Assembly: GCA_964354805.1 (NCBI GenBank)
Contig: CAYHBD010000016.1
Location: 68,532-132,531, forward strand
Direction: 5' to 3'
Length of the DNA stretch: 64,000 bases
Source: an uncultured archaeon
Lineage (GTDB): Archaea; Iainarchaeota; Iainarchaeia; Iainarchaeales; GCA-2688035
The notes beneath the pieces are model-generated. The model was not told the origin of the DNA, ran no database searches, and saw only the letters and a program-made list of their open reading frames with translations. The translations under genes were made by a program, and so were the position numbers. The stretch's first letter is position 1; each line of letters starts with the position of its first letter. Below are positions 25,928-47,844 of this stretch, piece after piece.

Positions 25928-25987
25928 TAGTTTTTTTTATTTTCAACCTATTTAAGCGGAACTGTCTTGCCTGCAATAGTTTTTTTA
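25893..25987 (+). repeat. Imperfect tandem duplication (about 47 nt, two copies) spanning the 3' end of the methylthiotransferase gene
   Basis: TTTCAACCTATTTAAGTGGAACAGTGTTAAGCTAATAGTTTTTTTT followed by TTTCAACCTATTTAAGCGGAACTGTCTTGCCTGCAATAGTTTTTTT. Confidence 0.7.
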
Positions 25988-26069
25988 ATATTCTTTACTA
26001 AGTAATATTAATTCAGAAAGTAAACTTTTGGAAAAAGTTTAACCAAAAAGCTTTACCTGGGGTGTTTCA

Positions 26070-26828: not shown

Positions 26829-26941
26829 TTGCTAACAAAGCCACTTTAAAAATCTTTCTTTAACTTCCCTTATTTTTTAATTACCAAACCGTTTTTTTCA
26901 GAAAACAAACTTTTAAATAAACTTTTTTTCAGATTATTAAT

Positions 26942-27000
26942 AAGCCTTTTTCACTTCCGTGAAAAAGCCTTGGGAAAAAGGGCAATTGCTTCGCAATTGC
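26942..27000 (+). repeat. Two-hairpin repeat element, copy upstream of the Lrp/AsnC gene
   Basis: AAGCC-TTTTTCAC-ttcc-GTGAAAAA-GCCTTGGGAAAAAGG-GCAATTGC-ttc-GCAATTGC. Confidence 0.75.
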
Positions 27001-27026
27001 AAAGATTTTTTATTTGGGGGGATGAA

Positions 27027-27500
27027 ATGCAGGCAGCTTTTGACAAAACTGATTTAATAATCCTAAAAAGCCTGATGCACGATGGCAGGGCAAGCTTCAG
27101 CAGCATTGCGAAGGAAACGGCTTTAACCGATGTCGCAATAAAGAAGAGGGTTGAAAGCCTGCGGAGAAGGGGCATTGTCAGCAGCATTACGGCGAACCTG
27201 AACTATAAGGCCCTCGGCTTTGAAAACCCAATTTTTGTCCAAATCCGTAGCGAGATTGGAAAAAACAAGGATTTGATTAAAAAAATGGAGAACTTTGACC
27301 ACATAATCGAATTATACCAAGTGCTTGGTGAATACAACTTGCTGGCAAAAATGGTTGTGAACGATTTAAGCGCAGCGGAAAAAGTGATAAGCAAACTCGG
27401 CCTGATCGACGGCGTGCTTGATGTCAAAGCGCTGGTTGTATTGAACGAACTAAAGCAGGGCAAAGTACTGCCCTCAACAGCGCTGCAGAGAAAATTGTGA
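27027..27500 (+). CDS. Lrp/AsnC-family transcriptional regulator
   Basis: ATG at 27027. DKTDLIILKSLMHDGRASFSSIAKETALTDVAIKKRVESLRRRGIV (HTH) plus a RAM-like C-domain. Confidence 0.8.
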   Translation: MQAAFDKTDLIILKSLMHDGRASFSSIAKETALTDVAIKKRVESLRRRGIVSSITANLNYKALGFENPIFVQIRSEIGKNKDLIKKMENFDHIIELYQVLGEYNLLAKMVVNDLSAAEKVISKLGLIDGVLDVKALVVLNELKQGKVLPSTALQRKL

Positions 27501-28205: not shown

Positions 28206-30524
28206 ATGATTCTGATAATTGCGGAGAAAGCTATTGCCGGGCGAAGAATTGCGGGAATTCTTGCTGGTGAAAGGCATTTGGAGAAAGCGAGCGCTGGGGC
28301 AATCTATTTTGATTTCGAGCAGAAGGGGCAGCAATACAGCGTTGTTCCATTGCGGGGGCACATTGTTGACGTGGATTTTCCAGTTAAATACAGCCAGTGG
28401 CTTGGGACAGATTTGCGGAAGCTTGCTGAAAGCGAAATAGAATACATTGAAACAGAGAAAACAATTGCAGGCCTTTTGAAGAGAATCGCGCCCCTTGTTG
28501 AAGAGGCCATTGTTGCAACTGATGACGATAGGGAAGGGGAATCAATCGGCCTGGAAGCAATTGAAATACTGCATAGTGTTAACAAAAAAATCCCTGTAAA
28601 GAGAATGAAGTTCAGTGCAATAATTGAACAGGAAATAAAACCGGCTTTCGCTGCCCTGCAGCCGCTGGACAGGAACCTTGCTGAAAGCGCCAATGCAAGA
28701 AGGGAAATAGACCTTGTCTGGGGTGCTGTCCTGACAAGATTCCTCTCGCTTATTTCAGGTCAGCTTGGAAAACAGTTCCTCAGCATGGGCAGAGTTCAAG
28801 GCCCTACGCTTGGCTTGATTGTTGACAGGGAAAAGGAGAGAATGGCGTTTGAATCAAAAAAGTACTGGATAGTGCAGGCGCTTTTTGAAAAAGACAAGCA
28901 GCAATTCATTGCATTGCACAAGAAAGGCAGGTTCTGGGAAAAGGGGGAAGCTGAGAAAGCAGCCCAGTGCAAAAAGGCAAAAGAGGGGACAGTGCAGCAG
29001 GTAAAGAAAACAAAAAAGGTTCTAAGCCGGCCTGTTCCGTTCAACACAACCCTTTTCCTGAGGGCAGCAACAGCAATCGGCTTCAGTGCCGGAAGGGCAA
29101 TGCAGATTGCCGAGACTCTTTACCAGCAGGGCTTAACCAGCTATCCGAGAACAGACAACAGCGTTTACCCGCCAGCGCTTGATTTGAGGGCAATTTTAAG
29201 CCAGCTGGCAACAGTGCACCAGTTTGCTCCAATGGCAGGGCAATTGCTTAACCAGAAAAAACTTGAAGCAAGCAAGGGCACTTTTGCAAAAGACCATCCT
29301 CCGATTCACCCTGTTGCAGCGCCATCGCGCCAGCTGCAGGCTGATGAGTGGAGAATCTACGAGCTGATTTGCAGGCGCTTTATGGCAACGCTTGCTGAAG
29401 ATGCTTTAACGGAGAACCTTGCTGTTGAAATAGAGCTGGCAAAAGAACTGTTTGTTGCAAACGGGCAGCGTTATTTGAGCAAGGGCTGGAAGCTATTCTA
29501 TCCTTACAGCAAGGCTGAGGAAACAATTCTGCCAGTGCTGCAGAAAGGCGACAAGGTTCTGCTTGTCAAATTGGATATGCTGGCGAAGGAAACACTGCCG
29601 CCTCCTAGATACAGCCAGGGTGCTTTGATTAAGGAAATGTCAGATTTGAATTTGGGCACGAAAGCAACCAGGGCTGAAATAATCCAGAAGCTTTATGCAA
29701 GAAAATACATTTCAGGGCAGAAGGCAATTGAGCCAAACAAGATTGCTTTTGCAGTGATTGATTCGCTTGAGAAATACGATGGCGTTGTTGTTAAGCCAAA
29801 GATGACTGCCGATCTGGAAAAAGAGATGGATACTGTTGCTGAAGGAAAGAAAGAGAAAAAAGCTGTTGTTGACGAAAGCAGGCAGTTCCTTTCGAGCGCT
29901 TTGCAGCAGCTGTTGCAGAATAAAAACGAGATTGGTTCAATGCTGCGCGCTGCTTTGAGGGCCGATGCAATAATCGGCAAGTGCACAAAGCCTGGATGCG
30001 ATGGCGAGCTTTTGATGAGGCATGGCAGGACTGGAAAGCGTTTCCTAGGCTGCTCTGCTTATCCAAAATGCACTAACACTTTCCCTCTGCCGCAAAAGGG
30101 CAGCATAACTGTTCTGCAAAAGCGGTGCGATGCCTGCGGCAATTTCATGATTCAAGTTGGCGGCAGAAGATACAGGTTCAGCATGTGCATTGACCCGAAC
30201 TGCAAAAGCAAGGATGAGTGGAAGAAAAAGCGCGAAGAGAGGATCAGGGCGCAGGGAGAGAAAGAAGCAGCTGAGAAAGCCGCAGAAAAGAAAGTTGTTG
30301 AAGAAGCTGCAGAAAAGAAAGCAGCTGAGAAAGGTGCTGGAAAGAAAGTTGCTGAAAAGGGTGCAGAAAAGAAAGTGGCCGAAGATGGTGCCGGAAAAAT
30401 TAAAGAATTGAAAGCGCTTCCCAAAAAGAAAAAGGCAAAAAGCAGCAAGCTGAAAGAAACAGGGCAAGTAGCAGAGAAAAAGAAAAAAATCAAGGAATTT
30501 AAAACCGCGAGCCCAAGCGAGTGA
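28206..30524 (+). CDS. topA: DNA topoisomerase I (type IA) with C-terminal zinc ribbons and a Lys/Ala/Glu-rich tail
   Basis: TOPRIM LIIAEKAIAGRRIA...ATDDDREGE, active-site region SYPRTDN, Zn ribbons CTKPGCDG...CSAYPKC and CDACG...CIDPNC, then AAEKK-type repeats. Confidence 0.9.
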   Translation: MILIIAEKAIAGRRIAGILAGERHLEKASAGAIYFDFEQKGQQYSVVPLRGHIVDVDFPVKYSQWLGTDLRKLAESEIEYIETEKTIAGLLKRIAPLVEEAIVATDDDREGESIGLEAIEILHSVNKKIPVKRMKFSAIIEQEIKPAFAALQPLDRNLAESANARREIDLVWGAVLTRFLSLISGQLGKQFLSMGRVQGPTLGLIVDREKERMAFESKKYWIVQALFEKDKQQFIALHKKGRFWEKGEAEKAAQCKKAKEGTVQQVKKTKKVLSRPVPFNTTLFLRAATAIGFSAGRAMQIAETLYQQGLTSYPRTDNSVYPPALDLRAILSQLATVHQFAPMAGQLLNQKKLEASKGTFAKDHPPIHPVAAPSRQLQADEWRIYELICRRFMATLAEDALTENLAVEIELAKELFVANGQRYLSKGWKLFYPYSKAEETILPVLQKGDKVLLVKLDMLAKETLPPPRYSQGALIKEMSDLNLGTKATRAEIIQKLYARKYISGQKAIEPNKIAFAVIDSLEKYDGVVVKPKMTADLEKEMDTVAEGKKEKKAVVDESRQFLSSALQQLLQNKNEIGSMLRAALRADAIIGKCTKPGCDGELLMRHGRTGKRFLGCSAYPKCTNTFPLPQKGSITVLQKRCDACGNFMIQVGGRRYRFSMCIDPNCKSKDEWKKKREERIRAQGEKEAAEKAAEKKVVEEAAEKKAAEKGAGKKVAEKGAEKKVAEDGAGKIKELKALPKKKKAKSSKLKETGQVAEKKKKIKEFKTASPSE

Positions 30525-32411: not shown

Positions 32412-35400
32412 ATGCCGGAGAAAAGCATTGAATTGAGGGTTGCAGACCCTGACCCAACGCATGTTGGAAGGAACATTGTCACTCTGGACAGGGAGACAAA
32501 GCAGGCGCTTAGCATTACCTCTGGCGACATTGTGGAAGTGGAAGGAACAAAAAAGACCGCCGCAATTGTCTGGCCAGCAAGGGCAGAGGATGAAAGCAAA
32601 AAGATTGTGCGGATGGACAACTTCATCAGGCACAATGCTGGCGTTGGCTTGGGCGAAAAGGTTGCCGTAAGAAAGTGCGAGCCAAAGGAGGCAAAGAAGG
32701 TTGTGCTTGCACCAAGTCAGGAAATTCGCATTATCGCCAGCGGCTTTGAGAGGATTTTGAAGAAGAACTTTTTGGGCAGGCCCCTGACTATTGGGGACAG
32801 CGTTTGGATTAGCGTTTTCGGCAGCGGCTTTGTTTACAGGGTGATTGACACCAACCCGAGAGGCATTGTGAAAGTAACTGATTTCACCCAGTTTTCTTTA
32901 AAGGAAAAGCCAGTGAAGGGCGAGCTTGAGGCAATTCCAAGGATTGCATACGAGGACATTGGCGGCCTTGACGAGCTGATTCAAAAGGTTCGAGAAATGG
33001 TTGAACTGCCGATGAAGCACCCTGAGTTGTTCAGAAGGCTTGGCATTGTTCCGCCCAAGGGCGTTTTATTGCACGGCCCTCCCGGCTGCGGAAAAACACT
33101 GCTTGCAAAAGCTGTTGCAAACGAAACACAGGCGCACTTCATTTCAGTGAATGCCCCTGAAGTAATGTCAAAGTATGTTGGGGAAGCAGAAGAGCGCATT
33201 AGGCAGATGTTCAAGGACGCCGAAGAAAACGCGCCAAGCATTATTTTCATTGACGAGATTGATGCAATCGCGCCAAAAAGAGAGGAAGTGATTGGGGAAG
33301 TGGAGCGAAGGGTTGTTGCCCAGATTCTTGCTTTGATGGATGGCCTTGAGGCAAGGGGCAATGTCATTGTTATTGCTGCGAGTGTAACTGGTGACACTCC
33401 TGTGTTGGTTAAGAAGGGGGGTGTTATTCAACTAGCTACAATTGGGGAAGTGGTTGACCCATATTATGCGGATGGGGGGGAAGGCATCCAAAAAGACGCC
33501 AGCGACTTGGAAGTTCTTGGGATGAAAAAGTTGGTTGCCAAACACAATTTGCCTTGGACTTGCTTTGGTGGAAGCAAATTCCAGCCGGTAAAAGCGGTGT
33601 TTAGGCATAGGGTTGCTGAAATTTATGAAATTGATTTTAATGGCGGAAAAATCAAGACAACCGGCAACCACTCAGTCTTTGTTAGAACTAGGAATGGCAT
33701 TCGGGCTAAAAGAGTTGACGATTTGAGTTTGAATGATGTTTTGGTTGATTTGCCATATAAGGTTAATCGGACTACCCCTGCTAAAATGGAAGTCAGGGCG
33801 CATGAATTCGCTTTGAGTGAAACTCCAATTAAACTTCCAGTTTATGGCAGTGAAGTTCAAGAGATGTATGCATTGGCAGTAGCAAGACAAATTAGTCCAC
33901 AGCAAGTTTCTAAAACAATGGGCGTTCATGTTACAACCGCGTATGGCTGGCAGCGGGGTGACAGAAAGCCAGACTTTTGCAGGTACCACGAGGCAGGCAT
34001 CCCAAACGAAGTAATTATCACGCCTGAATTGATGAAATTGTTTGGATATTATGTTGCCGAAGGTTATGCCAGATCGGAACTTGATTTCTGTTTCGGCGCC
34101 AAGGAGACGCATTTAATTGATGATGTTAGGAGTTCCATGAAATTAGTTTTCAATGTTGAACCTGATTCAATCATTGTTACAAATAATCGTTGTAACATTG
34201 TTTATCACAAAAAACCTTTGGCAGATTTTTTTGCAAGGCATTGCGGTAAGGGTGCCCGCAACAAAAGGCTTGCCTCATTCTTTTTCGAACTACCCAAAGA
34301 ATATTTCCTAAGCTTCTTGCAGGCATACATTGACGGAGATGGTTACGAAGACAAAAACGGAAGGCTGGAGGCAACATCAGTAAGCAAATCGCTTATCTGG
34401 GAACTGAACTGGCTTTGCAGGATGCACGGAATCAAATCCTATATTCACCAGTTTACCGCCAAAGAGGGAAGAACAATTAAAGGCGGAAAACCATTGAAAA
34501 AGACACTCGCATATCGCTTAGGTATCGGGAAAACCAACAATCCGTTCAGACTTTGCAAAAAAGTGCCGGCTCAAGGCTTGGCCAGAATTAAAAAAATCGC
34601 CAAAAAACAGTTTGACGGTTTCGTTTACGACCTGTGCGGTTGTGAAGAGGAAGCATTTTTTGGTGGTGAAGCCCCCATTTTGCTCCACAACACAAACAGG
34701 GTTAATTCAATTGACGAGGCATTGAGAAGGCCGGGCAGATTTGACAGGGAGATAGAGTTCCCTGTTCCTGACAAGGAAGCGAGGAAAGAGATTCTCGCAA
34801 TTCATACAAGGGGAATGCCTATCCACCCGCCGCTTGATTTTGAGTATTTGCGCGAGCTGGCTGAAAAAGAGAACGGCAAGTTTTTGTCAAAGCAAACAAT
34901 GGAGCAATTGGCAAAGCTGGTGAAAAAACCAGGCGATGAAAAAGAATTCTTTGCCTCTTTGGATGAAAAGGCAAAGGCAGAGGTAACAGAAGCCCTCAGG
35001 GACAAAATGCTTGAATACTTTGCTTCAATAACACACGGCTTTGTCGGGGCTGACCTTGCTGCTTTGGCAAAAGAGGCAGCAATGAAGGCGCTGAGGCGCT
35101 ATCTGCCAAAGATTGATTTGGAGGATGAGAAAATCCCCCCTGAATTATTGGAATCAATGGAAGTCAACAAAAGGGATTTCATTAATGGATTGAAGGATGT
35201 TCAGCCAAGCGCACTGAGGGAAGTGACGATTGAAGTTCCGAATGTCAAATGGGGGGACATCGGTGACTTGGAGGATGTAAAAGAGGAACTGAAGCAGGCT
35301 GTTGAATGGCCTTTAAAGCACCCCGACAGCTTTAAAAAAATGGGCATAAGGCCGCCCGCCGGTGTGCTATTGTTCGGGCCGCCTGGTTGCGGAAAAACAC

Positions 35401-36068
35401 TGCTTGCAAAAGCTGTTGCAACTGAAAGCGAGGCAAACTTTATTTCGATCAAGGGCCCGGAACTTTTGTCGCTTTGGGTTGGAGAATCGGAAAGAGGAGT
35501 TCGAAAGGTTTTCAGGAGAGCGCGGCAGGTTGCCCCCTGCATTGTTTTCTTTGACGAAATTGATTCAATTGCAGGCAGAAGAGGCATGGGCGCAGACAGC
35601 CATGTGACAGAAAGGGTTGTAAACCAGCTGCTTACAGAATTGGATGGAATTGAGCAGAACAGAAACGTTGTTTTTCTGGCTGCAACAAACAGGCCTGACC
35701 TGCTCGATCCTGGCCTGCTTAGGCCAGGCAGAATAGACAAGCTGATTAAGATTGATGCACCGGATGAAAAAGGCAGGCTTGCAATATTCAAGGTTCACAC
35801 AAAGAATGTCAGCCTTGCAAAGGATGTTTCTCTTGAAGAGCTTGCAAAGAAAACAGCCGGCTTCAGCGGAGCAGACATTGAAGGGCTTGTAAGGGAGGCA
35901 GCTTTGATTGCATTGAAGGAAAACAAGCTGGTTCCAAAGCCAGTTGAAAAAACTCACCTTGAGCAAGCGCTTGCGGAAGCGAAAGCAAGCATTTCCCCAA
36001 AGGTTGAAGAAGCATACGAAGAATTCGAAGAGCACCTCAGCGAATTCAAGCCGAGCTACGTTGGTTAG
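32412..36068 (+). CDS. cdc48: CDC48/VCP-like AAA+ ATPase (two AAA domains) interrupted by an intein in D1
   Basis: CDC48 N-domain. D1 Walker [16 protein letters not shown] and Walker [12 protein letters not shown]2 [15 protein letters not shown] and [10 protein letters not shown]. The conserved VIVIAATNRP is split as VIVIAA|S...HN|TNR. Confidence 0.92.
33381..34691 (+). mobile_element. Intein (437 aa) with LAGLIDADG homing-endonuclease domain, inserted at the sensor-1 ATN motif of CDC48 D1
   Basis: Block [11 protein letters not shown] (Ser1), block [20 protein letters not shown] motifs [11 protein letters not shown] and [12 protein letters not shown]-terminal FVYDLCG...ILLHN followed by the +1 Thr. 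Removing 33381-34691 restores [27 protein letters not shown]. Confidence 0.85.
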
Positions 36069-36075: not shown

Positions 36076-36654
36076 CTAAGGCGGGATAGGAACCATAAGC
36101 CACCCTATAATGGCTGAGAAGAAAACCGCTGCCCAAACAGAGGCGTTCCAGGCAAGAACTTTTTTTCCATCAAGTAACCAGACCGGCAGCATGTTGAACA
36201 TTGCCAGGAAAAAATTGATGTAGGCAGTGTAGAAGAATATCATGTTCAGCCAAGAGCTAAGGTTTAACAGCAGCAACAGAGAAAAAATAACCCCCAGTAC
36301 AACGTTTATTGCTGGCCCTGCAACCGAAATTATTCCGTTTTGCCTTCTGTCCAAGTTTCCTAGAATGTATGTGGCGCCAGGCATTGCAAATATGAGTCCA
36401 ATTAATGATAAAAAAACTGCAAAAATGAGACCCGGCTGCCAAGCCCTGTATTCTGAGTGAAATCCAAATTTTCTTGCGACGTTTCTGTGGGCCATTTCGT
36501 GTAAAACAAACGCTGTTCCAACACCAACCAAAGCCAGAGGAAACGCTTGGGGAAAGCCAGTTAGACCTAAAAACCCTCCGCTAAGGGCAATTGCAAACGC
36601 AACGCTCAGCGTCAGCCAGCTGATAATTAAATCGTTCCTCTCCCTTGCATTCAT
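36076..36654 (-). CDS. Site-2 protease-family (M50) membrane metalloprotease
   Basis: HEMAHR zinc motif in a TM helix and NMLPVWLLDG (NxxPxxxLDG). Confidence 0.7.
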   Translation of the reverse strand: MNARERNDLIISWLTLSVAFAIALSGGFLGLTGFPQAFPLALVGVGTAFVLHEMAHRNVARKFGFHSEYRAWQPGLIFAVFLSLIGLIFAMPGATYILGNLDRRQNGIISVAGPAINVVLGVIFSLLLLLNLSSWLNMIFFYTAYINFFLAMFNMLPVWLLDGKKVLAWNASVWAAVFFSAIIGWLMVPIPP

Positions 36655-36702
36655 AAGCCTTTTTCACTCCGTGAAAAATCCTTGGGGAAAATCGCCTTTG
36701 GC
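36655..36702 (+). repeat. Two-hairpin repeat element, copy abutting the M50 protease start codon
   Basis: AAGCC-TTTTTCAC-tcc-GTGAAAAA-TCCTTGGGGAAAATC-GCC-ttt-GGC. Confidence 0.65.
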
Positions 36703-36810
36703 ATGCAAATTTTTTATTGAAAAAGAATTAAAAACCAAGCCGCTCATTTTCTTCGTTTTTTGCCGAATTAACTGCATGGTTTTTATATCTTGCCAAAGGG
36801 TGCTTTTTTT

Positions 36811-37014
36811 ATGGCTAAAATGTTTTCTTGGTTAAGGGATTGCCTGCTGGACAGAAGGGCGCAGATTTCAGTGGAACTGATAATCATCATGGCGGCTGTT
36901 GTTGCACTGGTCCTGATGCTCGTGAGCCAGCTGCAGTCAACAGGCACTGATGCAAATAAGAAAATTGGAGAGAAAGCCGAAGATGTCTTCAAGAAAATTG
37001 AGGAAATCAAATAA
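36811..37014 (+). CDS. Small type IV pilin (class III signal peptide)
   Basis: MAKMFSWLRDCLLDRRA/QISVELIIIMAAVVALVLMLV. ATG at 36811 preferred over the TTG at 36790. Confidence 0.6.
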   Translation: MAKMFSWLRDCLLDRRAQISVELIIIMAAVVALVLMLVSQLQSTGTDANKKIGEKAEDVFKKIEEIK

Positions 37015-37029: not shown

Positions 37030-37443
37030 ATGCACAGCAGCAGAGGCCAGCTTAGCTTGGAGTACCTGATTTTGTTGGCTGCTGTTCTAGCTGTTTTTGC
37101 CATGCTGCTGCCGCTTCTTAGCAGCATTTACTCGCACGGATTGTTTGCCTTGGACTCAATCAACGCAAAGCAGTTCGCTGTTTCAATGCAGCAGCACGTT
37201 GACGAAATGCAATTTCAGGCGGACGGCGCGATTGCTTCATTCAGCGTAAAACCGTTTAAAGTGTGGGGTATCAGGAGCGATGCCAAGCAATTCCTTGTCA
37301 CAGTGCCTGACCCTGAAGGGAAGCCAAAAGAATTCGCAGTAAACTTTCCAAACGAAATCGAATTGCTGCCTGCGACAGTTGCAAAAGAAACGCATTTTGT
37401 GGTGCAAAAGCAATCAGGCAGAATCCTGCTTGAATACAACTAG
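37030..37443 (+). CDS. Type IV pilin-like protein (class III signal peptide)
   Basis: MHSSRG/QLSLEYLILLAAVLAVFAMLL. Confidence 0.65.
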   Translation: MHSSRGQLSLEYLILLAAVLAVFAMLLPLLSSIYSHGLFALDSINAKQFAVSMQQHVDEMQFQADGAIASFSVKPFKVWGIRSDAKQFLVTVPDPEGKPKEFAVNFPNEIELLPATVAKETHFVVQKQSGRILLEYN

Positions 37444-37776
37444 CTTTATTTCATGCCTCTGCATTAAGCCGTCAAAGAAAACGATTTCCGACGCAATGCC
37501 CGCCTTCCCCCCTTCTCCAACTGTTGTTTCAGTTCCGTCAAGAACGATTTTTCCGCTCACGCCGGGGAAAGCAAAGCGAAAATCCCCCTGCATTTGCCCT
37601 GCATTTAGACTGCTTCCCTGCATTTGCCAGATTGAAAGCAAATCGTTTTCCTTCTTGAAAACATGCAGGTCATTCAAATAACTGCTCTGCTGGGGCAAAG
37701 GAAAAGCAAGCAGCGATACAAGCAACGCCATTGACAGAATTGCCTCAGCGCTCAAATAAAAGCCCTTATTTTTCAC
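37414..37776 (-). CDS. Type IV pilin-like protein
   Basis: MKNKG/FYLSAEAILSMALLVSLLAF. Confidence 0.6.
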   Translation of the reverse strand: MKNKGFYLSAEAILSMALLVSLLAFPLPQQSSYLNDLHVFKKENDLLSIWQMQGSSLNAGQMQGDFRFAFPGVSGKIVLDGTETTVGEGGKAGIASEIVFFDGLMQRHEIKLVVFKQDSA

Positions 37777-38227
37777 ACACGCTCACCGCCACAAGCCCTT
37801 TCACGCCATTCAGCAAAACAAGCCTGTCCAAAGCAATACAGTTTTTGCCTGCAGGGCCCTCAAAAAAACCCTGTTCAATCCCAAACTCATCCTTAAAAGA
37901 AACCCTGCTGACAAAAAAGCCATCTTTCTCAAATTGCTCTGCCCTGCTGAGCAGAACGCTGTCCAAATTATTGCTCAAAACCCTGTGCTTCTCTGCATCA
38001 AACAAGGCGCTTCCAAGCAAGGGTTGCTCTGCATCATTGTTCTTAACCAGGCTGTCAGCCAAAAATATTGCGTTCCTCTGCAAATCAAATCTGTTGATTG
38101 ATTCAACCTGCTGGTCCTTCAAAACGCTGGCATGCATCAAAATCAGCAAAACCATCAACAGCATTGCAATAAAAGAAACCGCCAAATCAATAGAGAAAAT
38201 AAACCCACGTTCACCGGTAATGTTCAT
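37766..38227 (-). CDS. Type IV pilin-like protein
   Basis: MNITGERG/FIFSIDLAVSFIAMLLMVLLIL. Confidence 0.6.
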   Translation of the reverse strand: MNITGERGFIFSIDLAVSFIAMLLMVLLILMHASVLKDQQVESINRFDLQRNAIFLADSLVKNNDAEQPLLGSALFDAEKHRVLSNNLDSVLLSRAEQFEKDGFFVSRVSFKDEFGIEQGFFEGPAGKNCIALDRLVLLNGVKGLVAVSVCEK

Positions 38228-38615
38228 TTGGGGTTACCTCCAGCTTGTTGCCCTGCTCTCTTTCAACAGTCTTAAGCAGGGGCGCAATGCACTGCGTTTT
38301 CTTCATTTTTTCGCCTTCGCTGCTTTCAACCACGTTTTCATTTGCACTGCAAGGCATTGCAGGCAGCAATTCTTTCACATTGCCACTGTACAAAGCGTCT
38401 GCCCCAATGCAGCAAAACTCAGTGGCAGCTTTTGCCTTGAGTGCGGCAACGGCATCCTGCGCCTCTGTGTTCATGTTGTTCACGCTGTGCAGCATTATCG
38501 CCAACAGCGCGAGAAAAACGCAGAAGCAAGCAATTGCCTCAAGCTGTAACTGGCCTTTTTTGTTGATACAAAAAAGCCCAGGGAAAAATTGCTTCGCTTG
38601 GCCCCTTTTGTTCAT
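38211..38615 (-). CDS. Type IV pilin-like protein with extended leader containing a repeat element
   Basis: MNKRGQAKQFFPGLFCINKKG/QLQLEAIACFCVFLALLAIML. Confidence 0.6.
   Translation of the reverse strand: MNKRGQAKQFFPGLFCINKKGQLQLEAIACFCVFLALLAIMLHSVNNMNTEAQDAVAALKAKAATEFCCIGADALYSGNVKELLPAMPCSANENVVESSEGEKMKKTQCIAPLLKTVEREQGNKLEVTPNEHYR
38552..38597 (+). repeat. Two-hairpin repeat element, copy inside the pilin-gene 5' end (second hairpin degraded)
   Basis: GGCC-TTTTTTGT-tgat-ACAAAAAA-GCCCAGGGAAAAATT-GC-ttc-GC. Confidence 0.65.
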
Positions 38616-39175
38616 CCAACCACCGTTGCTTTGATGCTATATCCCGGTGGCAGCCTGAACACTGTTTTTGTGTTATCTCCCGCAATTTCCGCCTCAATAA
38701 AATTGTTCCGTTGCAGGCCGCCTGTGAAATCGTATTCAGCCAGAACGGTTTTGCCCTTAATGCTTACTATGAGCGCTGTGCTGTTGTTGTTCAGAAAATC
38801 TTCAAACTGCAAGCCATCGCTTGTAGTGAATTGCATTTTTGTCTCAGCATCATATCCCTTGAATTGCACTTTTATTTTAGAATTGTATTCTTTCTCAGTT
38901 TCCGCAAACAATAGCACCAACTTTCCGTTCACAAAAAGCTTTAATTCCTCTTGCGGAATGTTCAGCAATATTGCCTGCTGCAGGCTTTCCCTGACCATTG
39001 CATCTGTATTGTTTTCAATGACTGTTCTGATGAAACTGGCTTTTTCGGCTTCGAATGCAATCGTTTTCCCCTGCGCAAGAATTTTGTCAGCTTCAATGCT
39101 TTCGTTCAAAAAATTTGTTTCCAGCGCTATTGCTGAAAGCAGCAAAAGAAAGCAAAAAATGCCCTTGTTGTTCAT
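38612..39175 (-). CDS. Type IV pilin-like / pilus-associated protein
   Basis: MNNKG/IFCFLLLLSAIALE. First gene of the minus-strand pilin operon. Confidence 0.5.
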   Translation of the reverse strand: MNNKGIFCFLLLLSAIALETNFLNESIEADKILAQGKTIAFEAEKASFIRTVIENNTDAMVRESLQQAILLNIPQEELKLFVNGKLVLLFAETEKEYNSKIKVQFKGYDAETKMQFTTSDGLQFEDFLNNNSTALIVSIKGKTVLAEYDFTGGLQRNNFIEAEIAGDNTKTVFRLPPGYSIKATVVG

Positions 39176-40052: not shown

Positions 40053-40100
40053 AAGCCTTTTTGCTTCCGCAAAAAGCCTTGGGAAAAAGAGCCTTCGGCA
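40053..40100 (+). repeat. Two-hairpin repeat element, copy between the ArsR-like gene and the 585-aa secreted-protein gene
   Basis: AAGCC-TTTTTGC-ttcc-GCAAAAA-GCCTTGGGAAAAAGA-GCC-ttc-GGC. Confidence 0.7.
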
Positions 40101-40118
40101 GACCCTTGCACATTTCTT

Positions 40119-41876
40119 TTAGCATCCTGTTCCTGCTTTCCATTGCCTCATTTTCTGCATTAGTGTCAGCATGGTTATTTCTCCTTTTTTCCACTGCCCA
40201 ATAAAGCCCAGCAACTCTGGCTCCCTAATGCATTGTTGAGTGCAGTCTGTTGGGCATGTTTCAATTGTTTCGCCTGCATCGCAAGTGCCGTTGCCGCAGC
40301 AGACATTGTCTTCGTCTGTTAATCCATCAAAGTCGTTGTCTTTGCTGTCGCATACTTCTTCAAGAAACTTGATTGCGCTTAATTTTTCGTTGATTGCATA
40401 TTCAATGCTTGTATCAAAAACAATTGTGCCTCTTTGGTATTTTCTGTACCATGTGCTGCCTTCTTTGTGGGGCTCTTCTAAAGGCAATCCTAACTTGTAA
40501 CCATAAGTGAAGTAGTTAACCATTGGCTTGTCGTACTCGCTTGGATTGATGTAAATGTATGTGTTTTGGTTTCCAACTAAATGGGCAAAAAGCCAAATCT
40601 GGTAAGCTAGGGGGTTGTTGGCCTCTGCTTCGGAAAAGGTGCTTGCAACATAAAGTTGTTTTTTGTTGTTGTCGCCTAATCTTTTTGATTGGCGGTAATA
40701 AGCTTCAACATTGGCGTCTTGATTCCAGAAGCCGTTTTCAAACATTATCATGTCAAAACTATTTAAATTTTCTGTACTGCTGGTTAACCTATCCAAAAAT
40801 GCGGTTAGGGTTATTTCCAGGTTGCCTGAGTCGGTTACTGTCCTGAATCCGTTTAATATAAGGCGGGTATTAGGTTTTGCTGCCTTTATTTCCTTAGCAA
40901 TCAATATTACATTATCAATTAATTTGTTCCTCTGGTCGTCTATGCTTCCAGTGGAAATATACTTTCCAACATAATTAATCCAGTAGTCTGAGGGAATCCA
41001 ATTATCCAAGAAAACATCATCATTCCCATACCGTGCCTGTCTTATTAATACGTATTCTACTGCGTATTCCCTTACAACAGAGTTGCTAAAGTTAAAGAAC
41101 CATCTTCTTTCAGTTCCACCCCCACCTCTCCAATAAGTACATGCGGGCGTTTCATCGCACCCATATCCCCAAGGGTAAACAATAGTTTTCCCATTCCGGT
41201 AATCCTCGTCAGGGGAGTCTTTGAGAGGCTCGGTGTTGGTCTTGTTATCTTTCCAAATGGTATTCCCCCCAGAATCTGTTTGAACTCCATAACTGCATCC
41301 CCCTTCGCCAAACTCTTCTCTTTCTTGACACATTTTGTTTATATCTGCTCTTTGAATAATGTCTTTTCTAACTTTCCCGTCTCCATCGGCATCATATTTT
41401 GTGAATAGAGCATCTATGTCTGATTGATCAAGTGCAACCACATTAATTCGTTGTCGGTTTTCAGTGGCGGAAGGGTCGAAAAGGCTTTCTTTATCAAAAC
41501 TACCGTGTGGGTGAATGTTGGTTGTTGAAATATAATGAAAAAAATCTAAGCCATTGTATCCGTTTCCAATAGTAAATTCTGTTCCCTGGATTTGCTCGGC
41601 ATTTCCTTCGTAATACCTTATTTCGTAAAATTTTAGGATTTCATTGAAGTTTGTGTTCCCTAACTTGCTTCCGCAGTCGATCGCGCAGTTTTCGCTGTTT
41701 TCCCCTAATCCTGGTTCGCAGTTTTGGTTGCCGCATGCGTCCAGGGTTTCTTGCAGTTGGAGTGTGGAATGCTGTTCATTTTGTGGCGTTGTTGTTTCAG
41801 GTTGTTGGCTATGCGAATTTGAGTTTGCAAGCAACGCTATTGCAAGAATAATGATAATTATTGATTTATGTTTCAA
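40119..41876 (-). CDS. Secreted protein, TIM-barrel glycoside-hydrolase-like core, EF-hand-like loop, Cys-rich modules and shared C-terminal tag
   Basis: TTG start, signal peptide MKHKSIIIIILAIALLANS. CGNQNCEPGLGENSENCAIDC and CGNGTCDAGETIETCPTDC modules, YDADGDGKVRKD, and the tag GFIGQWKKGEITMLTLMQKMRQWKAGTGC. The hydrolase call is weak. Confidence 0.65.
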   Translation of the reverse strand: MKHKSIIIIILAIALLANSNSHSQQPETTTPQNEQHSTLQLQETLDACGNQNCEPGLGENSENCAIDCGSKLGNTNFNEILKFYEIRYYEGNAEQIQGTEFTIGNGYNGLDFFHYISTTNIHPHGSFDKESLFDPSATENRQRINVVALDQSDIDALFTKYDADGDGKVRKDIIQRADINKMCQEREEFGEGGCSYGVQTDSGGNTIWKDNKTNTEPLKDSPDEDYRNGKTIVYPWGYGCDETPACTYWRGGGGTERRWFFNFSNSVVREYAVEYVLIRQARYGNDDVFLDNWIPSDYWINYVGKYISTGSIDDQRNKLIDNVILIAKEIKAAKPNTRLILNGFRTVTDSGNLEITLTAFLDRLTSSTENLNSFDMIMFENGFWNQDANVEAYYRQSKRLGDNNKKQLYVASTFSEAEANNPLAYQIWLFAHLVGNQNTYIYINPSEYDKPMVNYFTYGYKLGLPLEEPHKEGSTWYRKYQRGTIVFDTSIEYAINEKLSAIKFLEEVCDSKDNDFDGLTDEDNVCCGNGTCDAGETIETCPTDCTQQCIREPELLGFIGQWKKGEITMLTLMQKMRQWKAGTGC

Positions 41877-41916
41877 TTTAAATCAATCAAATAAGTGCTT
41901 TCTTTAATAAAAATTT
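41877..41916 (-). promoter_or_regulatory. Conserved promoter/leader, copy A (TATA-like TTTTTATT at about -38 to -31 from the start codon)
   Basis: Gene-sense AAATTTTTATTAAAGAAAGCACTTATTTGATTGATTTAAA|TTG. Aligns with copies at 46636-46676, 57579-57619 and 62025-62064. Confidence 0.6.
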
Positions 41917-43884: not shown

Positions 43885-46635
43885 CTATGCCGGCAGGCAT
43901 CCTGTTCCTGCTTTCCATTGCTTCATTTTCTGCATTAGTGCGAGCATGCTTATTTCCCCTCTTTTCCACTGGGGAATGTACTGGTTCATTAATGTCGGCG
44001 TGTCAACGCATTCTGGTGTTTGAGCGCAGCCGCTTTTGTCAAGCGTGCATTGTGCCGTGCATCCAAGTGTTCCTCCAAAATACCCCAAAGAAACGCAGCT
44101 TTCTCCAAAAAGGGCTGTTCCATCGCATTGTTCTCCCAAATCATCATCAACGCCGCCGTTGCCGCATGCTGTATATGATTCGCAGCCGTCACTCAAATTG
44201 CCATTGCTGTTTTGGTATCCTTCAAAGCAGCCATCGAAATGGCAGCTTCCTGCAACACAGCTGCTGAAAGCGTGCGGGTAATAGCATACATTGCTACAGC
44301 TGCCGCAGTTGAATGGGTCATTCTGCAAATTAAATGGTTCGTCTATTGGTGTGCTCCAAGTTGCTGTTGAACTAGAGCTTGTCCAGTACCGCGCGTCTCC
44401 ATCATTGTCAGCGCCGTCGCATATTTCAATTCCTGGGTTGTCTTTTAGCGTGTTCCAGCTGTATTCTGCAGTGTTTACTACTCCACCAACATTGTTGTAG
44501 AATTCGTGGTCTATTATGCCAAGCGCGTTGTATTTGTTTGCAAGATATGACCACCATTTGATGGCTGTTTCATCATACCATGGTCCCCCAAAAAATTCAA
44601 AACCAAGGGTGTTGTAAAGGTTAGGGCCGTTTTCCATGTTTAGATACTGATTGTTTGTGGTATACCACCAATCGATTGGAACAACGTTTTCCCTTTTCAA
44701 TAAATCCAGCGCATGCCAGCTTTTTCCAGTTTGGCCGCCGTACATAGCCTGATATGATTCAACGCCGCCGTTGTGGAACGGGCTTATCATGTCATCCCAT
44801 ATAAGCACTTTTGTGTCTGCGTTGTAGCTGTGGATTATGTCAACCATTTTGTTCAAAAACTTTCCAAGCACCTGATAGTTCTCAAAGCCCCTTTTCTTTG
44901 ACCTGCTATCCCTGTTGAATCCCCTGATTTCATCCATTCCAATGAAAACAAAGTCAGGTTTCTTCTCCATTGTGCTTTTTATATTGTTTCTGTATTCATC
45001 AAGCACTGCAGGGTCTGAGAGGCTTGCATACTCATTTCTTGTTTGCTGGAAATTTACAATAAAGTCGTAGTCTATTGCAACCTCTGCACCGGGCAATATC
45101 CTGCCACCTTCAACTCTTTGAACAGTTGTTTTTTTTCCAGCCAGTGGGTTGCTGAAATTGAATTCCCCTGTTGTGCTCAACGTGTAGTCCGTGCCTTCGG
45201 TGTATTTCACTGTTCTATCCTTATTCCAAACCTGCAGCCCAGTATCTGGCGTCCTAATCACATTCCTTAGGGCTTTTGTCAGGTCAATTAATTCAAAGTC
45301 GTCAAGCCACCATGTTACTGGCTCGCAGAACATGGCCCTGCTGTAAATGGTAAATCCTGCCGCGCCATTAAAAGAAGTGAACATCAAAAAATATTGCTTC
45401 CACTCCCCGCTGTTATCCGTTATGTTGCCATTGTAGTATACACTTGCTCCCCCTATAATAAGAGTGTTCCCTGGCTCATCTTTCATAACAACAGTGAATT
45501 GCGGCTGCCTGTCATTGTTGTTTGGGTCGTTTTTTTTCGCCCAAAAAGTGAACATGTAAATCTTGTCTGACTCAATTGGGATCTGGCTTTCTGTCAGAAA
45601 ATAGCTGCTTGAATCAAGCCCCAATGTATGTTCAGCAACCATCTTTACAGAGCAGTTGCCTGAATGGCTTTGCGTGCAATCCCTTGTCCACTGTCCTCTC
45701 TGCTGCTCTATTGGATAGTTTGAATATTTCCAGCCATCCGGAACTCCGTCTCCATCTTCATCAAATTCCAAATCAGGGTTTGGCAGTTCAACCCCGCCTG
45801 CTGGCTCTGCAATGCCAGAGCTGTTGAACCTGAATGGGGCATTGTATGCCCACACACCTTCATGGAGGTTTTTTCCTTGTCCTTCTGCATATGGTGGCAA
45901 GCCCAGCTTTGTAGAAGTGAAGAAGTGCCTGTCCCTTACATACTCAGTCAGCGGGCCATTGATCCAAATATTGTATTTGTATTTGGCTAAGTGTTCAACC
46001 CAGGCTTCTTGTGTGCCGTAGTAGGGAGGCCAATCTTGTCTGCTGTAAGGGTCCCATATAGTGGGTTCAGTTCCTCCATAGAACCCCCTTATTTTTAAGT
46101 CAGGCCAGTCTGTTATTTTTGCATTTGGCAGAATTATGCTGCTGCCCTCTTTTTTCAGCAGCCAAGTGAGTGAAACAACGCCGTAGAATGTTCCTGCTGT
46201 CGTGTTCCCCAAAATTAGAATCTGGTTTGGCTGAATTATGAGAACATATCCTTGGTTGAATTTATCTTGTGTCAATTCGTTGTTTATGTTGATTCCTGCG
46301 CTGCTTGCGATTGCTGCTATTGCTGCATTTGTGTTCGGGTTTCCTATTACGATTCTTTTCTCTGCTGGCATTGCAGTTATGTCAACTATTCCAAGGCTAG
46401 TTCCCAATGCCGCGCTTATTTTTTTATTTAAGTCGGTTGCTGCAAAGCTGTCTTCTGTTGCCAGGTCAGCCGCAATTTTCCAGCTGCTGTCAATGCTTAC
46501 TGCTGTTGTTGAGAGAGTTTGAATGCTTTTTGGCTTTGGGATTATTGTTGCCGGGTCAATCGGCTGGGCATAGCTGGCTGTAGCCAAAAGCAACAGGAAA
46601 AATGCGATTGCAACAATTATTGTTTTTTGCTTCAA
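43885..46635 (-). CDS. Large secreted protein: GH20-like N-terminal/TIM region, CBM4/9-like module, Cys-rich region and shared C-terminal tag
   Basis: TTG start, signal peptide MKQKTIIVAIAFFLLLLATASYA. IIPKPKSIQ...DWPDLKIRGF resembles GH20. NPDLEFDEDGDGVPDGW is CBM-like. Tag QYIPQWKRGEISMLALMQKMKQWKAGTGCLPA. Confidence 0.7.
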   Translation of the reverse strand: MKQKTIIVAIAFFLLLLATASYAQPIDPATIIPKPKSIQTLSTTAVSIDSSWKIAADLATEDSFAATDLNKKISAALGTSLGIVDITAMPAEKRIVIGNPNTNAAIAAIASSAGININNELTQDKFNQGYVLIIQPNQILILGNTTAGTFYGVVSLTWLLKKEGSSIILPNAKITDWPDLKIRGFYGGTEPTIWDPYSRQDWPPYYGTQEAWVEHLAKYKYNIWINGPLTEYVRDRHFFTSTKLGLPPYAEGQGKNLHEGVWAYNAPFRFNSSGIAEPAGGVELPNPDLEFDEDGDGVPDGWKYSNYPIEQQRGQWTRDCTQSHSGNCSVKMVAEHTLGLDSSSYFLTESQIPIESDKIYMFTFWAKKNDPNNNDRQPQFTVVMKDEPGNTLIIGGASVYYNGNITDNSGEWKQYFLMFTSFNGAAGFTIYSRAMFCEPVTWWLDDFELIDLTKALRNVIRTPDTGLQVWNKDRTVKYTEGTDYTLSTTGEFNFSNPLAGKKTTVQRVEGGRILPGAEVAIDYDFIVNFQQTRNEYASLSDPAVLDEYRNNIKSTMEKKPDFVFIGMDEIRGFNRDSRSKKRGFENYQVLGKFLNKMVDIIHSYNADTKVLIWDDMISPFHNGGVESYQAMYGGQTGKSWHALDLLKRENVVPIDWWYTTNNQYLNMENGPNLYNTLGFEFFGGPWYDETAIKWWSYLANKYNALGIIDHEFYNNVGGVVNTAEYSWNTLKDNPGIEICDGADNDGDARYWTSSSSTATWSTPIDEPFNLQNDPFNCGSCSNVCYYPHAFSSCVAGSCHFDGCFEGYQNSNGNLSDGCESYTACGNGGVDDDLGEQCDGTALFGESCVSLGYFGGTLGCTAQCTLDKSGCAQTPECVDTPTLMNQYIPQWKRGEISMLALMQKMKQWKAGTGCLPA

Positions 46636-46676
46636 TTTGAATCAATTAGAATAAGTGCTTCATTCAATAAAAATTT
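46636..46676 (-). promoter_or_regulatory. Conserved promoter/leader, copy B
   Basis: Gene-sense AAATTTTTATTGAATGAAGCACTTATTCTAATTGATTCAAA|TTG. Confidence 0.6.
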
Positions 46677-46713
46677 AATCCTTTATTTAATTACATTTAT
46701 TCACAGGATTTTT

Positions 46714-47844
46714 ATGCCAGGCAACATTTTTGCAAAAAAGGCAAGGATTCACGAGCTGTTCAAGGACGAGCGCTTCCTTTACCCCGAGTATGTTCCGGAG
46801 CGTTTGCCCCACAGGGATGCCGAGGTTGATTCCCTTGTTTTTGCACTGCAGCCTGTATTGCAGGGGAAAAAGCCACAGAATGTTTTTGTTTCCGGAAAAA
46901 GTGGAACAGGAAAAACAGCAACAGTGCGCTTTGTTCTGAACGAATTGCAGCAGTACAGTGACAGGGCAAAAGGGCTTTACATCAATTGCTTCCAGTTCAA
47001 CACAAGGCATTCAGTTCTAACGCAGATTGCGAACTTTTTGGGCGAGGCAACCCCACGAAGAGGGATTGCTTCAGATGAAACATACAGCCATATGCTGAAG
47101 GCATTGCAGTCCATAAATTTTGTGCCGGTAATTGTACTGGACGAAGCAGACCAATTAATGCATGAAAAAGAGGCAAGCAAGCTGTTCTATGACCTACTGC
47201 GCGTTATTGAACAGCACCACAAGGGCTTTGGCCTGGTTTTCATTAGCAATGTTGCAGAATTCACCGCATTGCTTGATGCAAGGGTAAAAAGCAGCCTTGC
47301 GGAGCAAACAATCTGCTTCGAGCAGTATTCACCCCAACAGCTTAAGGACATTCTGAGGGAGAGAGCCCAGTATGCTTTTTTTCCAAATGCCCTTGAGCCA
47401 GATGTAATAAATGTTGCTGCTGCCCATGCAGCAAAATTCGGCGGGGATGCAAGGATTGCAATAGAGTGCCTTTTGAAAGCAGGGAGGGAAGCTGAAAGGG
47501 AGAACGCCCTCAAGGTTACAGTGCAGCATTTGCAGAAGGTTTTCCCCCTGATTGATTCAGCCGCCTTGCAGAAAGCGATTAATTATTTGGGCGAGCACGA
47601 GAAAGCAATCCTGCAATCGATTCCTGCAAACCAGGTAATTGCAAGCGGGGATTTGTTCGCTGCCTACAAAAAAGCTGTAAAGAAGCCGTTCTCGCAAAGG
47701 CAGTTCAGGACAATGAGGGCAAACCTGGAGAGAATGCATTTGATTAATTGCAAAGAAGCCGCAAAGGGAAAAATGGGCAGGACAGTGTTTATTTCCCTTG
47801 CTTTTCCCAAAAGCAGGCTTGAGCCATCCACCACAAACAAATAA
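46714..47844 (+). CDS. cdc6: Orc1/Cdc6 replication initiator
   Basis: ATG at 46714. PERLPHRDAEVDSL, Walker A VSGKSGTGKTAT, Walker B VIVLDEADQL, and a C-terminal winged helix. Confidence 0.9.
   Translation: MPGNIFAKKARIHELFKDERFLYPEYVPERLPHRDAEVDSLVFALQPVLQGKKPQNVFVSGKSGTGKTATVRFVLNELQQYSDRAKGLYINCFQFNTRHSVLTQIANFLGEATPRRGIASDETYSHMLKALQSINFVPVIVLDEADQLMHEKEASKLFYDLLRVIEQHHKGFGLVFISNVAEFTALLDARVKSSLAEQTICFEQYSPQQLKDILRERAQYAFFPNALEPDVINVAAAHAAKFGGDARIAIECLLKAGREAERENALKVTVQHLQKVFPLIDSAALQKAINYLGEHEKAILQSIPANQVIASGDLFAAYKKAVKKPFSQRQFRTMRANLERMHLINCKEAAKGKMGRTVFISLAFPKSRLEPSTTNK

Follow-up and report, generated by a model that had tools for sequence, protein, structure and literature searches.

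The 64,000-nucleotide stretch analysed here (hereafter the window; contig CAYHBD010000016.1 of assembly GCA_964354805.1, positions 68,532 to 132,531) comes from an uncultured DPANN archaeon of the Iainarchaeota/Diapherotrites type, and homologues of its genes are named 'Candidatus Diapherotrites archaeon'. It carries two clusters of type IV pilus-like genes, and in each cluster the leader codons of one gene for a class III signal-peptide protein hold a short palindromic repeat that also occurs between genes. On the minus strand, gene g2 (38211-38615; P1 in protein comparisons) reads MNKRGQ - AKQFFPGLFCINKKGQ - LQLEAIA: the codons ATG AAC AAA AGG GGC CAA are followed by 48 nt running from GCG AAG to GGC CAG (38615-38550 with the start) and then by TTA CAG CTT GAG. 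Its start, the ATG at 38615, shares bases with the TGA of gene g1 upstream (38612-39175) in an ATGA overlap, and an allele without the insert, in the related locus L044, has the same ATGA overlap and the leader MNNRGQ. The second gene, P2, reads (TTG)NKRGQ - AIAKQLPFFPGVFAKRQKGQ - VSIEF, with 60 nt between TTG AAC AAA AGA GGG CAA and GTC AGC ATT GAA (10520-10443 from the TTG through the insert). Its TTG and the stop of the upstream A24 prepilin peptidase gene (10517-11500) overlap as TTGA, the reading frame is still open upstream to a TTG at 10535, and an in-frame TTG lies inside the element at 10487-10485.

The original prediction, made from the sequence, had described both layouts, an MNKRGQ start followed by a second KKGQ in g2 and an NKRGQ start, an insert and KGQ/VSIEF in P2 (slashes mark the cleavage or insertion site). 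Both are found as described, as are the lack of an in-frame ATG, GTG or TTG between the g2 start and KKGQ and the ATGAATAAAAAAGGCCAG start of the uninterrupted pilin gene at 11717-12070. It had also placed the g2 insert between near-identical strings that each encode N-K-(K/R)-G-Q. The strings CTGGCCTTTTTTGTT and TTGGCCCCTTTTGTT are present and identical at 12 of 15 positions, but the right-hand N-K-K-G-Q codons are not a duplicated target, since they are the element's own conserved hairpin arm AAAAAGGC. Likewise, the g2 insert does belong to the two-hairpin repeat family that had been proposed, but only hairpin 1 is intact, and hairpin 2 is reduced to a 9-nt remnant. This insert, which encodes AKQFFPGLFCINKKGQ on the gene strand, falls into repeat family D5; the P2 insert matches the intergenic copy at 26944-27000 with 82% identity over 57 nt (family D14) and folds with a z-score of -2.6. 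The proposal that both inserts are members of a single repeat family was correct, and this direct-repeat family has further copies in the window.

Both interrupted precursors have the motif of class III or EppA-type signal peptides (KKG/QLQLEAIACFCVFLALLAIML in P1 and QKG/QVSIEFILLIVITLVYI in P2), defined here as K/R-G(A) at -2/-1, either Gln or some hydrophobic residue at +1 (with Glu at +5 for the Gln type), and then about 20 hydrophobic residues. The neighbouring genes at 11717-12070, 37030-37443 and 36790-37014 pass the gathering threshold of PF04021. P2 itself matches this family with E=3e-4 and 21.0 bits against a gathering cut-off of 23.7, and several of its orthologues carry precomputed PF04021 annotations. 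We label g2 pilin-like because of its KGQ, its hydrophobic N-terminus with Glu at +5, and its gene cluster.

Read on the plus strand, the element starts with hairpin 1 (AAG-C-C-T5-NN(N), a loop, and NN(N)-A5-G-C-CTT, containing a C·C mismatch that is conserved), continues with GGGAAAAA, a conserved motif that is single-stranded between both hairpins, and ends with hairpin 2, which varies in sequence (for example TTGCC-TTC-GGCAA or GCAATTGC-TTC-GCAATTGC) and is often followed by AAGCC-T5-8. It is about 45-60 nt long, and tandem copies have periods of 48, 50, 56 and 60. The 18-nt core AAAAAGCCTTGGGAAAAA has nine matches within 3 mismatches where 0.94 are expected, a number reached in 0 of 100 shuffles. 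We analysed the fold across 28 copies from the window, close relatives and other metagenome-assembled genomes (MAGs), counting covariation on an alignment with a hand-given structure. In hairpin 1, 87% of cells are paired, compared with 73% in shuffles (0 of 500 shuffles reach 87%), and there are 49 double-sided changes where shuffles lead one to expect 14.8, with far lower values in slid controls. The outer 3-4 pairs covary between AAG/CTT, AGG/CCT, CAG/CTG and CTGG/CCAG. An excess of G-U over A-C cells (15 vs 4), weakened by alignment shifts, gives a weak hint that the plus strand is the folded one; the full copy at 26938-27004 folds on either strand (z = -4.1 and -3.5). Hairpin 2 is terminator-like on both strands at 24583-24595, 24631-24643 and 26982-27000, and T-runs occur on both strands. 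Rfam returned no credible family at the gathering threshold for the whole window, nor at E<=5 for 24400-27100.

All eight copies in the window, six intergenic and two genic, lie in one orientation. Copies follow gene stops at 24494, 26941 and 40107, and the copy at 36653 lies between divergent genes; two intergenic sites come after genes running in the element's plus direction, one after an opposite-strand gene and one between divergent genes. Plausibly, the native role of the element would be that of a bidirectional oligo-T/hairpin element at gene 3' ends. An Orc1/Cdc6 gene lies at 46519-47844 with all eight copies to one side (10-40 kb), and syntenic copies in the related locus L040 keep the same relative orientation. 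The shared orientation may reflect a replication-linked strand bias; GC skew tracks gene orientation and gave no replication-origin signal that would tie copy orientation to replication direction.

To compare alleles with the element (filled) and without it (empty), we used relatives of both genes. Protein searches returned six relatives of P1 and 26 of P2. Among the former, P0004 (from L044) starts MNNRGQLQLEA without an insert, P0002 and P0006 have diverged inserts, and P0003 and P0005 have short odd extensions. An insert occurs in only one P2 homologue (P0009), and the other 25 of the 26 start uninterrupted with MNKRGQVSIEF (P0008, P0011 and P0013), ...LNKRGQVSIEF (L054), or MNNKGQVSIEF or similar. 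Global DNA alignments gave one clean gap each: 48 nt for g2 of the window, L042 and L045 against L044, and, against L054, 60 nt for P2 of the window and 48 nt for P2 of L047. Three further genes of the second cluster are empty in the window and filled in relatives. Here g1 has MNNKG/IFCF in the window and MNNKGIAAKPLFFPRLFPKEKG/FFCF in L040 (+51 nt), g4 has VKNKG/FYLS in the window and VKNKGFAEGSFSQGFFSFGKKG/FYLS in L042 (+51 nt; L040 has a degenerate +48 nt insert), and g3 has MNITGERG/FIFS in the window and MSTIGKPFLFLEKKEKPCEKKKIFEKG/FIFS in L042 and L049 (+57 nt), with the element in the opposite orientation. The leader variants number 12 in five class-III-signal genes, nine of them element-bearing (48-60 nt), one a degenerate 48-nt insert and two short remnants, and presence/absence polymorphism is seen in seven genic and two intergenic filled/empty comparisons with single clean gaps. 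Leaders measure 21-27 residues in filled alleles versus 5-12 in orthologues with short leaders.

Occupancy is patchy. MAG GCA_053536015.1 has g2, g3 and g4 filled and P2 empty, and L042 (filled) and L044 (empty), which form the closest pair for g2, are separated by a synonymous divergence (dS) of 0.25. The distant cluster in L052 (38% identity) has short leaders only, which makes short leaders the ancestral state; a metagenome scan with the g3 alignment returned five loci, comprising one new filled allele (L049) and three distant clusters that are all short-leadered. The existence of uninterrupted orthologues, a question raised with the original prediction, is thereby settled: they occur, and they differ from the filled genes by one gap of 48 or 60 nt. 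Because such short orthologues exist, the long leader is a derived, lineage-specific state, and we rejected the alternative of an ancient conserved long leader. Around the start regions we also observed short duplications. At the A24 peptidase stop, upstream of the real pilin start, lies a decayed copy of the P2 5' end (such as MKKRGQASIEFAGDFI with a stop after it), and g2 has short start-region duplications in L040 (MNKKAKLQGSTMNKKGQ) and L046 (MNTLNNKGQ). Such 5'-end duplicates may have been left behind when the element was gained or lost, or when pilin 5' ends recombined with one another.

The twelve leader gaps measure 48, 48, 48, 51, 51, 48, 57, 57, 60, 48, 33 and 9 nt, and all are stop-free multiples of three. 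The chance of this outcome is about 2e-6 if they are independent and about 5e-4 for seven events. A length divisible by three is not intrinsic to the element, because the inserts in the intergenic filled/empty pairs are 47 and 48/49 nt long and the tandem periods vary as given above. The g2 inserts of the window and L045 differ by a +1/-1 register shift (TTT TTC CCT GGG vs TGT TTT CCC TGG, hence FFPG vs FPWG), and a compensating difference in hairpin 1 keeps both at 48 nt. Since the frame in which the element is read varies among genes (FFPRLF, FSQGFF), there is no conserved element peptide, only a conserved frame and a terminal K-G. No start codon follows the element in g2 of the window, L042 and L045, in g1 of L040 or in g4 of L042. 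The mature part of g2 has a ratio of nonsynonymous to synonymous divergence (dN/dS) of 0.07-0.15 at dS 0.25-1.0, pairs of filled alleles included, and this purifying selection marks the filled genes as working genes. The in-frame and stop-free variants, the compensating indels and the lack of a conserved downstream start lend indirect support to the earlier claim that the element is translated within the leader. We infer read-through from the original start and cleavage by the A24 peptidase at the downstream K-G, the site that is followed by the hydrophobic helix and is hence the predicted cut.

It is highly improbable that the element is left untranslated, with the pilin starting after it at an unrecognised codon, or that the gene is a pseudogene. 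The in-frame TTG inside the P2 element and an ATG just before NKKGQ in L040 g2 would suit such a start, and hairpins near a start codon can block initiation. However, this would leave unexplained why 12 of 12 variants keep the frame, why the L045 indels compensate, why five filled alleles have no start after the element and why mature g2 is under purifying selection; moreover, filled and empty alleles both have an upstream start that overlaps the stop before it.

Each element-bearing leader insert adjoins an A-rich AAGG(G/C)-type site (AAGC for the single inverted copy). The left flank retains the sequence of the empty site (AACAAGGGC-ATT, AATAAGGGC-TTT, ACAGAGGGC-AG and AGAGGGGGC-AG), and the left junction is of the target type, AAGGGC, whereas the right end is always of the element type, AAAAAGGC (AAAGGC), followed by the original downstream bases. 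The two intergenic pairs run from CAAGGA/TTTC to CAAGGG-element-AAAAAGGC/TTCT and from AAAAATTGC/CTTATG to AAAAAATT-element-AAAAAGGC/TTATG. Because the left side keeps target sequence and the right side is the element end, there is no true target duplication, and the junctions indicate that the element inserts beside sequence resembling its own end. The terminal AAA-AAA-GGC encodes Lys-Lys-Gly in the sole frame that is compatible with the host gene, so that an insertion rebuilds the -2/-1 residues before a +1 residue that stays unchanged. Five copies stand before a Gln(+1) codon (GGC CAG/CAA), and all of them have CCCAGGG in place of CCTTGGG, a variant that restores the outer stem as CTGG/CCAG instead of AAG/CTT. 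The requirement of EppA-type peptidases for Gln at +1, and their processing of KGQ(V/L/I) sites (PMC4371748), explain why it is the CTGG/CCAG variant that Gln-type pilins contain. The inner stem of hairpin 1 might be a copy of the target, in which case the leader codons would be repeated three-fold; except in g2 of the window (ATCAAC vs ATGAAC), its similarity to the target is no better than A-rich sequence leads one to expect.

We think it probable that this repeat is a site-preferring palindromic element, comparable to repetitive extragenic palindromes (REPs) or MITEs (miniature transposable elements with inverted repeats), that survives in genes only where the encoded peptide is discarded. 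A palindromic repeat native to the intergenic DNA of Iainarchaeota-type DPANN archaea, mobile or recombinogenic, would insert beside A-rich then AGG(G/C) sites that resemble its end. The same site sequence encodes Lys/Arg-Gly at -2/-1 of class III signal peptides, and the element would thus land repeatedly on cleavage codons, where its terminal Lys-Lys-Gly would rebuild the cleavage motif before the unchanged mature N-terminus. Insertions of a multiple of three would be translated from the original start, the leader would grow to 21-27 residues, and the A24 peptidase would remove it. Because the leader is removed, insertions there would be nearly neutral, and we propose that insertions elsewhere in genes are purged. 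Two suggestions of the original prediction, that the element targets signal-peptide codons and that it is tolerated because the leader is discarded, thus both appear to hold. The third, that the element derives from signal-peptide coding sequence, is unlikely, given that it is mainly intergenic and found in several other species; we discarded an origin in pilin genes on the grounds that most copies are intergenic and the motif is common to other species.

Mobilisation could involve a transposase, either IS200/IS605-like or similar to the REP-associated tyrosine transposases (RAYTs), or recombination by microhomology and template switching. Hairpins at both ends, a sequence-specific site, the lack of a duplication and the one-strand orientation recall single-strand transposition of the IS200/IS605 type; the variable microhomologies and the decayed pilin 5'-end duplicates would fit template switching or ectopic recombination equally well. 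Several points weigh against this reading of the repeat. We found no transposase domain among the ~45 open reading frames (ORFs) of the window, and we know of no autonomous element with matching ends. The flanking repeats (6-12 nt) are imperfect and of variable length, unlike a classical target-site duplication. A Pfam search with g2 gave no match, class III families included. The CCCTGGG variant is common to the g2 and P2 inserts, whose leader peptides are nearly identical, and some events may therefore have been copying between pilin 5' ends instead of fresh insertion. Finally, the hairpins and two sense-strand T5-T6 runs after the start could lower expression, so neutrality is an assumption.

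A bolder version takes the repeat to be an active site-specific mobile element with the prepilin leader as its safe harbour, whose insertion is self-repairing and whose terminal arm has been shaped to encode Lys-Lys-Gly. One subfamily would encode Gly-Gln with a CTGG/CCAG stem and so satisfy the +1 Gln rule of EppA-type peptidases, and hairpins, oligo-T and A/T homopolymers would tune or switch pilus-subunit expression between strains. As a whole, we regard this version as rather unlikely.

The likeness of the g2 and P2 leaders raises the possibility that one or a few ancient insertions spread by homologous recombination or gene conversion of pilin 5' ends, with no target preference. The g2 insert of the window and the P2 insert of L047 are ~88% identical over 64 nt in genes whose mature proteins are unrelated, both genes share the leader peptide NKRG(Q/H)AKQFFPG(L/V)FCI(N/S)KKGQ, and the decayed duplicates in L054, L047, L048 and in g2 of L040 and L046 point to active recombination. 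However, the inserts of g1, g3, g4 and g2/P2 differ in linker (CCAAGG vs CCCTGG), hairpins, length and frame, and in g3 also in orientation, so that at least four independent events would be needed, and the two intergenic filled/empty sites share the junction signature without any pilin homology. On balance, conversion as the general explanation has a low probability in our view.

The conserved fold could instead reflect a co-opted regulator, namely an intercistronic attenuator or terminator built of hairpin and oligo-T, an mRNA-stability element that sets subunit ratios, or a slippage on/off switch at the A6-A8 and T6-T8 tracts. Stems are kept by compensatory changes inside genes, including CTGG/CCAG beside the Gln codon, the element is terminator-like on both strands and follows a tRNA-Ala 3' end in L013, and filled g2 alleles have persisted to dS 0.5-0.85. 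Moreover, the cleaved leader is the sole place between overlapping cistrons where an RNA element could sit without changing a mature protein. Yet presence is patchy among very close relatives and differs from gene to gene, which resembles drift or mobility; the g3 insertion has the opposite orientation, some copies are degenerate or partly deleted (g2 and g4 of L040, g2 of L046), stem differences at orthologous filled sites are equally well explained by separate insertions of different copies, and no frameshifted homopolymer variants were seen among the few alleles examined. We therefore consider regulation doubtful, though less so than spread by gene conversion.

The repeat extends beyond this species. 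A search with an exact degenerate 22-mer among GTDB species representatives gave 38 stretches, 12 of them from archaeal MAGs; the remaining matches are single ones in unrelated bacteria, consistent with chance. The 12 archaeal loci come from at least seven other MAGs ('Candidatus Iainarchaeum', one labelled Micrarchaeota, and unclassified archaea), and the motif again lies between variable hairpins, often in tandem arrays. In L013 the element begins directly at the 3' end of the tRNA-Ala gene, and both orientations are seen in L018 and in g3 of L042. The MAG SO_2017_SWC_5 has a composite repeat in which hairpins GAGATGCTTTAGCATCTC and CTGAACCTTATAGGTTCAG stand ahead of the AAAAAGCCTTGGGAAAAA motif. 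In these composites the conserved motif is thus combined with different hairpin modules, as in mosaics of the bacterial interspersed mosaic element (BIME) kind. Searching a protein collection with a profile of the doubled leader peptide retrieved only two spurious 60-aa ORFs of intergenic arrays and missed the known cases, and hence does not inform on generality.

Among known systems, Rickettsia palindromic elements (RPEs) are in-frame palindromic repeats translated within many host proteins (PMC10969869). Like RPEs, the present element is palindromic, occurs both between genes and in frame within them, and is tolerated, its translation here being predicted. RPEs are ~100-150 bp long, bacterial, of ten families, and situated in surface-exposed parts of unrelated mature proteins, whereas the present element is archaeal and 45-60 nt long, and its genic copies all lie at class III cleavage codons with the motif rebuilt; the likeness is functional only. 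REP/BIME repeats and the pneumococcal SPRITE repeats are also short, abundant, mostly intergenic hairpins that form tandem mosaics at gene 3' ends, with T-runs, variable stems and constant short motifs. REPs, however, have a GT(A/G)G head and are extragenic by definition, whereas our element has GGGAAAAA instead and in-frame copies in five genes; no RAYT gene, which typically has REPs on its flanks, was seen in the window plus fragments of related genomes, although no dedicated search was made.

Presence/absence polymorphism links the element to MITEs, which differ from it in having terminal inverted repeats and a fixed-length target-site duplication: here there are two internal hairpins, and the ends (the hairpin-2 side and the AAAAAGGC side) are not complementary. 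With IS200/IS605-derived palindrome-associated elements (PATEs) and archaeal MITEs it appears to share a non-autonomous and polymorphic nature, hairpins at both ends, insertion beside a short preferred site with no clean target duplication, and one-strand orientation, but it is much shorter than those described and targets a loosely defined A-rich AGG(G/C) site, not a fixed tetranucleotide; PATE insertion is defined by a position 3' of a fixed 4-5 nt target. All junctions adjoin AAGG(G/A/C) or similar, and the single orientation of the window copies gives way to both orientations in L042 g3 and L018. The window yielded neither TnpA nor TnpB, nor any other transposase with matching ends. Like repeats that resemble intrinsic terminators, the element has a predicted stable hairpin and a T-run at gene 3' ends. 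The host genes share K/R-G at -2/-1, Gln at +1, Glu at +5 and the hydrophobic helix with EppA/PibD-processed pilins, and KGQV and KGQL sites occur in the Epd pilins of M. maripaludis (PMC4371748). Canonical leaders are short, whereas filled leaders have, in addition, another K/R-G site upstream and a hydrophobic FFP(G/R)LF stretch. In full-text literature searches, we came across no report of repeats that target class III signal peptides.

In-frame genic palindromes are known mainly from Rickettsia, where the reason for their tolerance is unclear. In the present case tolerance would have a simple explanation, as the element is confined to a peptide predicted to be cut off and rebuilds the cut site. 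One sequence can apparently serve both in a selfish or structural repeat and in a protein-sorting signal, AAAAAGGC reading as Lys-Lys-Gly. The alleles offer a natural series of 5- to 27-residue leaders for studying the length and sequence tolerance of archaeal prepilin peptidases. For annotators, overly long class III leaders or apparently startless pilins in DPANN MAGs may hold repeat insertions. Among Iainarchaeota-type genomes, the repeat represents an uncatalogued and widely distributed family, with a possible function as a bidirectional terminator.

Table 1. Coordinates of pilus-like genes, repeat copies and related features in the window and, where a locus is named, in related genomes.
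Feature	Positions	Strand	Remarks
g2 (P1), pilin-like	38211-38615	-	21-aa leader MNKRGQAKQFFPGLFCINKKG, then mature N-terminus QLQLEAIACFCVFLALLAIML
Original g2 start and leader codons	38598-38615	-	ATG AAC AAA AGG GGC CAA = MNKRGQ
g2 insert, 48 nt	38550-38597	+ (antisense to gene)	Hairpin 1 38550-38581; linker GGAAAAA 38582-38588; hairpin-2 remnant TTGCTTCGC 38589-38597
P2, class III signal-peptide protein	9975-10520	-	Leader (TTG)NKRGQAIAKQLPFFPGVFAKRQKG, then mature N-terminus QVSIEFILLIVI
P2 insert, 60 nt, both hairpins	10443-10502	+	Hairpin 1 ~10443-10475; GGGAAAAA 10474-10481; hairpin 2 (GCAATTGCTTCGCAATTGC) 10484-10502
Intergenic array, one full and two partial units	24494-24649	+	Stop of 23892-24485 (+) to radical-SAM gene ATG ~24681; terminator-like on both strands
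Intergenic full copy	26941-27000	+	Gene 26070-26828 to AsnC-type regulator gene
Intergenic copy	36653-36710	+	Abuts ATG (36654) of M50 peptidase gene; missing in L040 and L042 (+48/+49 nt)
Intergenic copy	40053-40107	+	GHL15-like to ArsR-type regulator gene; missing in L040 and L046 (+47 nt), present in L044
Cluster 1	~3.4-16.5 kb	-	T2SSE ATPase, two T2SSF, A24 prepilin peptidase, several class III signal-peptide proteins
T2SSE-type ATPase	14731-16500		Provides the genomic association looked for with pilin-like precursors
T2SSF/PilC-like	12437-13384 and 13418-14623		Same cluster as A24 peptidase and T2SSE
A24 prepilin peptidase	10517-11500	-	Pfam Peptidase_A24 2.5e-13, Arc_PepC 1.6e-13; directly upstream of P2, TTGA overlap
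Uninterrupted pilin gene	11717-12070	-	Starts ATGAATAAAAAAGGCCAG (MNKKGQ/GALEYLLL); Pfam PF04021 4.5e-8
Cluster 2	36.8-39.2 kb		Six small genes, K/R-G(A) cleavage motifs then hydrophobic N-termini
g1	38612-39175	-	MNNKG/IFCFLLLL; site empty in window
g3	37766-38227	-	MNITGERG/FIFSIDL; site empty in window
g4	37414-37776	-	VKNKG/FYLSAEA; site empty in window
Decayed P2 5'-end duplicates	L054 1428-1478; L047 ~170-215; L048 ~6200-6253		
Composite repeat, MAG SO_2017_SWC_5	L004 930-1010; L007 460-540; L012 7120-7200; L018 1930-2010; L032 3870-3945		

The window holds several further repeats and polymorphisms. The Cdc48/VCP-type AAA ATPase at 32412-36068 has 1218 aa; its L042 orthologue has 1207 aa with Intein_splicing and LAGLIDADG_3 matches, and its L040 orthologue has 781 aa with no intein families among those listed, which suggests that close relatives differ in whether an intein is present. 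A repeat of 96 nt (77-78% identity), found at 40118-40213, 43893-43988 and 55307-55402, makes up the 3' coding end of each of three minus-strand genes, one GHL15-like (585 aa), one GH20b-like (916 aa) and one a 762-aa ORF; the three hence share a C-terminal module ending ...GQWKKGEITMLTLMQKMRQWKAGTGC. A 49-nt repeat covers the start codon and upstream sequence of four minus-strand genes (16598-16646, 41868-41916, 46628-46676 and 57571-57619) with a TATA-like AAATTTTTATTAAAG ~25 nt before the start, an arrangement that suggests shared promoters with leaderless or short-leader transcripts. Four overlapping copies of a 27-nt tandem repeat (30257-30391) encode a Lys/Glu/Ala-rich stretch near the C-terminus of a topoisomerase (28206-30524). 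Two free-standing ORFs, 50909-52177 and 59288-60283, have weak LAGLIDADG_3 matches (E ~1e-4 and 8e-4) and may be homing-endonuclease-like.

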